Sequence record: AB218930.1
Strand: one strand, 5' to 3'
Source: a phage
Length of the DNA: 853 nucleotides
Shown here: positions 1 to 853 of the stretch, piece after piece
How positions within the stretch are numbered: position 1 is the stretch's first letter
Layout of the letters: each line of letters starts with the position of its first letter
Translations under genes and position numbers: made by a program
Notes under the pieces: model-generated
What the model was told of the DNA's origin: nothing
The model's database searches: none
What the model saw: the letters and a program-made list of their open reading frames with translations, nothing else

Positions 1-27
1 TTCGAGCTCGGTACCCGGGGGCGCGCC
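1..27. other. Vector polylinker (5' side): SacI GAGCTC 4-9, KpnI GGTACC 10-15, SmaI CCCGGG 14-19, AscI GGCGCGCC 20-27
   Basis: Contiguous, overlapping restriction sites in the order of the pUC19 multiple cloning site, followed by an added AscI site. This arrangement matches my recollection of the pNEB193-type polylinker. Seen directly in sequence. Confidence 0.85.
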
Positions 28-28
28 G

Positions 29-79
29 CTTCACTTAGCGAATGCATTAGCCTTAATCAACCAACGCCTGAAAAGGTAA
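29..79 (+). CDS. Probable 3'-terminal fragment of the maturation (A) protein gene, 5'-truncated at the cloning junction; reads ...LHLANALALINQRLKR*
   Basis: Open frame from the insert boundary ending at TAA 77-79, 16 nt upstream of the coat AUG. In ssRNA phages the maturation gene ends just upstream of the coat gene. The fragment is too short for me to confirm homology from sequence alone. Confidence 0.4.
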   Translation, partial: LHLANALALINQRLKR

Positions 80-83
80 TTAC

Positions 84-87
84 GGAG
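84..87 (+). promoter_or_regulatory. Shine-Dalgarno element (GGAG) for the coat gene
   Basis: GGAG lies 8 nt upstream of the ATG at 96. A possible small hairpin (85-105: GAGUU...AACUU) would place the AUG in or near its loop, as at the MS2 coat initiation site. The hairpin is a by-eye pairing, not a computed fold. Confidence 0.5.
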
Positions 88-95
88 TTAGCTAT

Positions 96-488
96 ATGGC
101 AACTTTACGCAGTTTCGTACTCGTCGATAATGGCGGTACGGGGAATGTTACTGTCGTTCCTGTTAGCAATGCCAACGGCGTCGCTGAGTGGCTTTCTAAT
201 AACTCGCGCAGTCAAGCTTATCGCGTGACTGCCAGTTATCGTGCGTCAGGCGCGGACAAGCGCAAATACACCATCAAACTTGAAGTACCGAAAATCGTTA
301 CTCAAGTTGTAAACGGTGTTGAGCTGCCTGTTTCCGCATGGAAGGCTTACGCCTCTATTGACCTGACCATCCCGATCTTTGCTGCAACCGACGATGTGAC
401 TGTTATTTCCAAGTCACTCGCCGGCCTGTTCAAAGTTGGGAACCCTATCGCTGATGCTATCTCTTCTCAGAGTGGCTTCTACGCGTAA
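96..488 (+). CDS. cp: ssRNA phage (Levivirus, GA-like / genogroup II) capsid coat protein, complete, 130 codons
   Basis: The translation MATLRSFVLVDNGGTGNVTVVPVSNANGVAEWLSNNSRSQAYRVTASYRASGADKRKYTIKLEVPKIVTQVVNGVELPVSAWKAYASIDLTIPIFAATDDVTVISKSLAGLFKVGNPIADAISSQSGFYA aligns along its full length with the MS2 coat protein as I recall it (FVLVDNGGTG, ANGVAEW, NSRSQAY, RKYTIK.EVPK, GVELPV.AW, LTIPIF, GNPI). It is closest to my recollection of the phage GA coat. The length is typical (~129 aa) and a GGAG RBS is present. Confidence 0.95.
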   Translation: MATLRSFVLVDNGGTGNVTVVPVSNANGVAEWLSNNSRSQAYRVTASYRASGADKRKYTIKLEVPKIVTQVVNGVELPVSAWKAYASIDLTIPIFAATDDVTVISKSLAGLFKVGNPIADAISSQSGFYA

Positions 489-679
489 TGGGTCTGAAAG
501 CAAAACATAAGGAAAACCTATGTTCCGATTCACAGAGATCGAAAAGGCTCTATGTATGGATCGCACTCGCGATTGTGCTGTCCGATTTCACGTCTATCTT
601 CAGTCACTGGATTTGGGGTCTTCTGATCCTCATTCTCCGGACTTTGATGGACTTGCCTACCTTCGTGATGAATGTTTAA
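488..679 (+). CDS. L: ssRNA phage lysis protein (L), 63 aa, single transmembrane helix
   Basis: The ATG at 488-490 shares its A with the coat stop codon TAA 486-488 (UAAUG). The product has a basic N-terminal region (KAKHKENLCSDSQRSKR) followed by a hydrophobic segment (LYVWIALAIVLSDFTSIFSHWIWGLLILIL), resembling the MS2 L protein segment LYVLIFLAIFLSKFTNQLL. Position, size and +1-frame overlap with the replicase start fit levivirus genome organisation. Confidence 0.85.
   Translation: MGLKAKHKENLCSDSQRSKRLYVWIALAIVLSDFTSIFSHWIWGLLILILRTLMDLPTFVMNV
504..524 (+). promoter_or_regulatory. Translational operator hairpin (coat-protein binding site) enclosing the replicase start codon
   Basis: AACAUAAGGAAAACCUAUGUU folds by eye into a stem 504-512 / 517-524 with one bulged A (509 or 510), a 4-nt loop AAAA (513-516), and the replicase AUG (520-522) in the 3' arm. 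This has the same architecture as the MS2 operator ACAUGAGGAUUACCCAUGU. The AGGA at 510-513 doubles as the replicase Shine-Dalgarno element. Confidence 0.75.
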
Positions 680-810
680 CCAAACATCCCTCACTTGGAG
701 ACAGTAATTCGGATGCACGCCGTAAGGAATTGGCATGTGCCAAACTTATGGATAGTGATCAAAGATGCAAAATCCAAAACAGTAACGGATACGACTACTC
801 TCATATCGAG
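520..810 (+). CDS. rep: RNA-dependent RNA polymerase (replicase beta subunit), N-terminal 97 codons only; 3'-truncated at the PacI cloning junction
   Basis: The translation MFRFTEIEKALCMDRTRDCAVRFHVYLQSLDLGSSDPHSPDFDGLAYLRDECLTKHPSLGDSNSDARRKELACAKLMDSDQRCKIQNSNGYDYSHIE matches the N-terminal region of the MS2 replicase as I recall it (GSGDPHSDDF..AYLRDELLTKHPTLG). The AUG sits in the operator hairpin, and the frame stays open to the end of the window with no stop. Confidence 0.9.
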
Positions 811-853
811 TTAATTAAGTCTAGAGTCGACTGTTTAAACCTGCAGGCATGCA
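811..853. other. Vector polylinker (3' side): PacI TTAATTAA 811-818, XbaI 820-825, SalI 826-831, PmeI GTTTAAAC 833-840, SbfI/PstI 840-847, SphI 847-852
   Basis: Order and spacing are those of the pUC19 multiple cloning site with added PacI and PmeI sites, as in pNEB193-type vectors. Seen directly in sequence. Confidence 0.85.

Follow-up and report, generated by a model that had tools for sequence, protein, structure and literature searches.

The DNA analysed here, a stretch of 853 nucleotides that is called the window throughout, raises the question of whether it is a piece of a natural phage or host genome or a product of the laboratory. The observations set out below indicate that the window is almost certainly a laboratory construct, a recombinant clone in which 783 bases of cDNA from an RNA coliphage of the GA/BZ13 type lie in a cloning-vector polylinker of the pUC type, bounded by its AscI and PacI sites. 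It is ordinary recombinant DNA and no natural genomic locus. It consists of three parts:

1 to 27, no strand: left polylinker arm, recognized by site scan, by palindrome coverage and as a substring of the presumed pNEB193 polylinker; TTC of the expected EcoRI site, SacI 4-9, KpnI 10-15, SmaI 14-19, AscI 20-27 (BssHII 21)
28 to 810, plus strand: insert, a plus-sense cDNA copied from a levivirus of genogroup II (Emesvirus japonicum, BZ13/GA type) and corresponding to GA X03869 1257-2039
811 to 853, no strand: right polylinker arm, recognized in the same three ways; PacI 811, XbaI 820, SalI 826, PmeI 833, SbfI 840/PstI 841, SphI 847, A of HindIII

The two arms differ sharply from the DNA between them. 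An earlier note had described dense and ordered polylinker at both ends, and every site that it named is found in the order given. From SacI through SphI the sites follow the order of a pNEB193/pUC19-type polylinker, an agreement far beyond chance, with BamHI gone, as is expected after cloning between AscI and PacI. Of the 70 arm bases, 66 lie within palindromic 6-mers or 8-mers (25 of 27 on the left, 41 of 43 on the right), compared with 60 of the 783 insert bases (7.7%). The best insert stretches of the same lengths reach a coverage of 14, against 25 in the 27-nt arm, and 16, against 41 in the 43-nt arm. When the arms were shuffled, none of 20,000 shuffles matched the observed coverage, and by chance any one of the four 8-base sites would turn up only 0.009-0.019 times per 853 nt. 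Among the enzymes checked, positions 28-810 hold one HindIII site (214), one MluI site (481) and nothing else. The outermost sites are truncated: of the EcoRI site expected on the left only TTC is present, and of the HindIII site expected on the right only the initial A, up to the point at which HindIII cuts. The record appears to have been cut back to just within the EcoRI to HindIII interval instead of to the insert.

Homology to phage genomes is confined to the DNA between the arms. In ungapped BLAST alignments to seven native levivirus genomes it starts at window position 28 or 29, the exception being L002, a contig that itself begins at window position 36, and it ends at 808 or 810 in all five genomes whose contigs reach that far. 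At these boundaries the native genomes continue as phage sequence: on the left ...CCACTTAGTGG leads into GCTTCAC..., and on the right ...CATATCGAG is followed by AGTGGCGTAC... (AGTGGCG...), whereas the window has polylinker at the same places, GGCGCGCC on the left and TTAATTAA on the right. The phage homology thus stops where two intact 8-base sites start, which supports the proposal of the earlier note that the window is a plasmid clone of phage cDNA with insert boundaries at AscI and PacI. Its further claim, that this is not a native locus, is supported by the continuation of the native genomes as phage sequence at both junctions.

The insert itself is genuine phage sequence, and beyond this nothing speaks for the view that the terminal sites arose by chance in a natural phage or host genome. 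Such a view would require four different 8-base sites, each expected about 0.01 times, and a palindrome coverage that the shuffles never reached. Leviviruses, moreover, have RNA genomes, and 11 of the 11 relatives compared carry at the positions of the arms a different sequence that is homologous among them. A native origin of the arms is refuted by the shuffle test and by the continuation of native genomes at the boundaries, and its probability must be regarded as vanishingly small.

The closest relatives of the insert are readily identified. It is 97.3% identical to Escherichia phage BZ13 strain DL20 (FJ483839, 1250-2032) and 96.7% identical to phage GA (X03869/NC_001426, 1257-2039), in both cases ungapped. 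Five environmental contigs assembled by Logan are 96.8-97.6% identical, with L003 at the top (97.6%, ungapped). The identity spans 780-783 nt in the close relatives GA, DL20 and L003, and falls to 89-91% in KU1-like members. Nucleotide identity places the insert in Emesvirus japonicum, and so do the gene order, which agrees with the annotation of FJ483839 and X03869 (29-79, 96-488, 488-679 and 520-810, with the TAATG overlap), and the protein families of coat, lysis protein and replicase described below.

Both arms are exact substrings of the string GAATTCGAGCTCGGTACCCGGGGGCGCGCC-GGATCC-TTAATTAAGTCTAGAGTCGACTGTTTAAACCTGCAGGCATGCAAGCTT, which we take to be the polylinker of pNEB193, with a 6-bp BamHI site between AscI and PacI. 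The plasmid pNEB193 is a New England Biolabs derivative of pUC19 whose polylinker gained AscI, PacI and PmeI sites. In comparison with this string, the 6-bp BamHI stuffer has been replaced in the window by the 783-bp insert, and the loss of exactly this stuffer is the outcome expected of AscI/PacI double-digest cloning. The string is 27 nt longer than the polylinker of pUC19, in frame and free of stop codons in the lacZ-alpha frame, and thus fits a blue/white vector. The polylinker is very probably that of pNEB193 specifically. In published work pNEB193 is a small plasmid with PacI and PmeI sites in its polylinker (PMC2396408, PMC1874603).

These features also bear on the possibility that vector reads and genuine phage reads were joined by an assembler and that no physical clone ever existed. 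It is true that some public viral contigs have vector left on their ends. An assembly or sequencing chimera would, however, be joined at arbitrary shared k-mers, and the junctions of the window have no shared sequence; both lie at complete 8-base sites, each arm has the right place and direction relative to the other, and the disappearance of exactly 6 bp between AscI and PacI is what ligation after a double digest leaves behind. A chimera is consequently very improbable, and a recombinant clone is the reading adopted here.

Database searches gave the following picture. The 43-nt right arm has no match in GTDB genomes, IMG/VR or JGI metagenomes, the presumed 76-nt polylinker has none in complete E. 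coli genomes, and comparison of the whole window with the PLSDB plasmids returned only chance matches of about 20-50 nt, all inside the insert. The left junction string was not found in IMG/VR or JGI metagenomes, nor was the right junction string in GTDB genomes. The open-access literature yielded no paper that combines pNEB193 with work on coliphages, MS2 or GA. Three of four polylinker junction strings are absent from this literature; the fourth (AscI-BamHI-PacI) occurs once, in a paper on Toxoplasma lipid metabolism, so that no paper there with strings across the pNEB193-specific sites appears to concern pNEB193.

The 20 nt with which the left arm begins were found in eight IMG/VR contigs, always at a contig end and running into ...GGGGATCC. 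In seven of the eight this motif directly follows a T7 promoter, and the M13 -20 primer site lies further upstream wherever the contig reaches far enough, as most do; in the eighth, L016, the available stretch starts at the motif. The presence of vector next to the motif in public contigs supports only that part of the left arm which is shared with pUC vectors. As an observation in its own right, these eight "viral" contigs carry untrimmed fosmid-type vector at one end, a T7 promoter followed by CGAATTCGAGCTCGGTACCCGGGGATCC-CAC, and their ends are vector contamination in a public viral collection (motif at L015:5647-5666, L016:13080-13099, L017:12914-12933, L018:139-158, L019:7881-7900, L020:14511-14530, L021:13894-13913 and L022:43-62).

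The insert carries two complete genes flanked by fragments of two others:

29 to 79, plus strand: terminal 16 codons and TAA stop of the maturation (A) protein gene; the GA coding sequence 136-1308 maps to an end at 79
96 to 488, plus strand: complete coat gene, 130 codons plus TAA
488 to 679, plus strand: complete lysis gene, 63 codons; its ATG overlaps the coat stop by one base (TAATG)
520 to 810, plus strand: first 97 codons of the replicase beta-subunit gene, without a stop, cut at PacI

The translation of 29-79, LHLANALALINQRLKR followed by a stop, agrees at every residue with the C-terminal end of the maturation protein of GA. The coat protein matches the Pfam family Levi_coat (E 1.6e-38, 132 bits), the lysis protein Phage_MS2_lysis (E 3.3e-7, 30.6 bits) and the replicase fragment RNA_replicase_B (E 8.6e-23, 81 bits, over profile positions 10-92 of 540), and all three scores exceed the curated Pfam cut-off of 25 bits. 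The lysis protein is identical to that of BZ13 DL20. In the coat protein 128 of 129 residues are identical to the GA capsid structure (PDB 1GAV), and exactly the same coat protein is encoded on five native levivirus contigs, all of them without vector. It differs from the coat of GA X03869 at three residues (T59, V79 and D122) and from that of DL20 at one (N116).

Two of these positions say something about the GA record. At coat codons 59 and 79 (window positions 270 and 331, the initiator Met being uncounted) X03869 (L007) has A59 and G79. T59 and V79 are found in the window, in BZ13 DL20, in the five environmental contigs and in both solved GA structures (1GAV and 1UNA). The X03869 coat looks like the odd one out, owing either to a variant stock or to sequencing errors.

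Three RNA hairpins accompany the genes:

84 to 106, plus strand: hairpin at the coat start, enclosing the AUG at 96-98; fold of -5.2 kcal/mol, z -1.7, which is weak evidence
454 to 478, plus strand: stem-loop, a potential control element of the lysis gene according to the GA annotation (misc_feature 1683-1707); -7.2 kcal/mol
504 to 524, plus strand: translational operator hairpin, a putative coat-protein binding site around the replicase AUG (GA feature 1733-1753)

The operator is identical at every base to the feature annotated in GA as "pot. binding site coat protein" (1733-1753). It folds into a stem of 7 bp, from which one A bulges, closed by a loop of 4 nt; the replicase AUG is enclosed in the 3' arm (z -3.6). 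With the Rfam model RF02359 it scores 18.1 bits (503-523, E 0.12), below the gathering score of 40. The operator is therefore of the GA type and not a member of the MS2 family by the threshold of Rfam, and judged from its sequence and fold it would work in the same way as the members of that family. A scan at the gathering threshold would overlook group II operators, which have an AAAA loop. A match to the snoRNA family ceN109 at 663-714 was dismissed as due to chance (18 bits against a gathering score of 52, E 0.41).

Whether the phage sequence is natural or was designed can be judged from its variation. Comparison with seven close relatives reveals 63 variable sites, and in the coat gene 36 of 39 are at third codon positions. 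This bias is that of a natural isolate under purifying selection and not of a recoded synthetic gene. Compared with 11 relatives, which include the KU1-like contigs of about 90% identity, the insert has five private substitutions:

93, C to T: in the coat-start hairpin, where it turns a C-G pair into U-G and the fold changes from -7.6 to -5.2 kcal/mol
374, T to G: silent
547, A to G: replicase T10A, silent in the lysis frame
714, C to T: silent
737, A to G: replicase Y73C

Either the strain itself carries these five substitutions, or they arose as errors of RT-PCR or cloning in a single clone. It is possible, although rather doubtful, that the DNA derives from an undeposited isolate of genogroup II F-RNA coliphage whose private substitutions are real, or else that the truncation of the replicase was designed to give a coat-operator-replicase' fusion cassette. 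The first 65 nt of the insert equal the GA reference at 6 of the 6 sites that vary among the relatives, which is weakly compatible with a primer based on GA. The sequences of the insert ends, taken as primers, were not found in the literature.

By combining these observations it is possible to propose how the construct was made. Most likely, 783 bp of an F-specific RNA coliphage of genogroup II (BZ13/GA type) would have been copied by RT-PCR with primers that carried AscI and PacI tails. By directional ligation the cDNA would then have been joined to the AscI and PacI ends of a pUC19-derived, pNEB193-type polylinker, in which the insert would take the place of the 6-bp BamHI stuffer.

The probable orientation of the insert follows from the presumed layout of the vector. 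In vectors of the pUC19 type lacZ-alpha is read from HindIII to EcoRI. The flanks of the window would be expected to be those of the pUC type, with ...GTAAAACGACGGCCAGTGAA before the TTCGAGCTC of the window on the left and AGCTTGGCGTAATCATGGTCATAGCTG on the right, that is, the start of lacZ-alpha in reverse and then Plac. In this presumed layout the plus strand of the phage would be antisense to the lac promoter. On the minus strand of the window the lacZ-alpha frame reads HACRFKQSTLDLINSI and then meets a stop, 16 codons in, so that the insert would give white colonies.

The earlier note had listed an assay standard, an in vitro transcription template and a coat-protein expression clone as possible uses and had called the choice speculative. 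It was right to leave the purpose open, but in a pNEB193-type vector the transcription and expression options are disfavored by the orientation and by the lack of a promoter. T7, SP6 and T3 promoters are absent from the window, the best match having 7-8 mismatches out of 18, and a template for in vitro transcription was rejected on this ground. A clone for lac-driven coat expression was rejected because, given the pUC19 layout, the insert would run antisense to lacZ-alpha. Matches resembling sigma-70 promoters and terminators occur in the window in numbers no different from those in shuffles, and native promoter or terminator signals were rejected as well. Upstream of the coat gene lie 68 nt of maturation-gene tail and intergenic sequence. 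These 68 nt would be useless for expression, the lysis gene is intact, and there is no sense-strand promoter, so that the plasmid is read as a passive carrier. We infer that it most likely served as a clone for sequencing or typing, as a standard for quantitative RT-PCR or as a subcloning intermediate, and not as an expression construct.

The end of the replicase fragment deserves separate consideration. The earlier note had stated that the gene ends abruptly at a codon boundary, and this was confirmed: from its ATG at 520 to position 810 there are 291 nt, exactly 97 codons, a coincidence that chance alone would produce in 1 of 3 cases. Beyond 810 the replicase frame meets no stop in the right arm and runs on until the window ends (520-852), reading ...YSHIE-LIKSRVDCLNLQAC, and an automatic gene caller would report here a spurious replicase-vector fusion ORF.

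Such an arrangement might also have been intended. The same insert and polylinker might reside in another backbone, either a pNEB193 derivative or a plasmid with a transplanted polylinker, or the DNA might be synthetic instead of a product of RT-PCR. The construct could then be a cassette of coat gene, operator and in-frame replicase stub, suitable for assays of translational repression and coupling or for expression of coat and lysis proteins. The codon-boundary end, the frame that stays open across the right arm, and the presence of complete coat and lysis genes together with the operator would all agree with such a use; the vector backbone lies outside the window, and a derivative may have a promoter upstream. 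Against it, the codon-boundary end is a one-in-three event, a layout of the pUC19 type offers nothing useful in frame downstream, the window contains no sense-strand promoter, and the 68 nt before the coat gene would be purposeless in an expression design. The five private substitutions, two of which change replicase amino acids, look like those of a single RT-PCR clone and not like synthetic design. Another backbone or a synthetic origin is on balance improbable, and an RT-PCR fragment cloned in a pNEB193-type vector remains the preferred explanation.

None of the components of the window is new: the polylinker is a commercial one, the phage part is the regulatory core that textbooks describe for group II leviviruses, and there is no biological novelty in their combination. 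The overlapping reading frames and hairpins constitute this core: the coat gene, the lysis gene coupled to it and the replicase start repressed by the coat protein. Neither they nor the abrupt shifts in composition at 27/28 and 810/811 should be taken for a new system. The value of the analysis is for quality control only: the window should be marked as recombinant DNA that includes vector sequence and kept out of searches for natural genomic features.

Comparison with known systems can be made for each part of the construct. With its two arms, the window matches exactly what we take to be the polylinker of pNEB193, and it differs from that plasmid in carrying the insert in place of the BamHI stuffer and in having the backbone outside its limits. 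The operator resembles that of MS2 (RF02359) in its 7-bp stem, its single bulged A, its 4-nt loop and the position of the replicase AUG in the 3' arm; the loop is AUUA in the Rfam consensus and AAAA in the window. BZ13 DL20 and GA have the same order and the same overlaps of maturation-gene tail, coat gene, lysis gene at TAATG, operator and replicase gene. The window differs from both in holding only an internal piece of 783 nt, in the form of DNA, with 21-26 substitutions.
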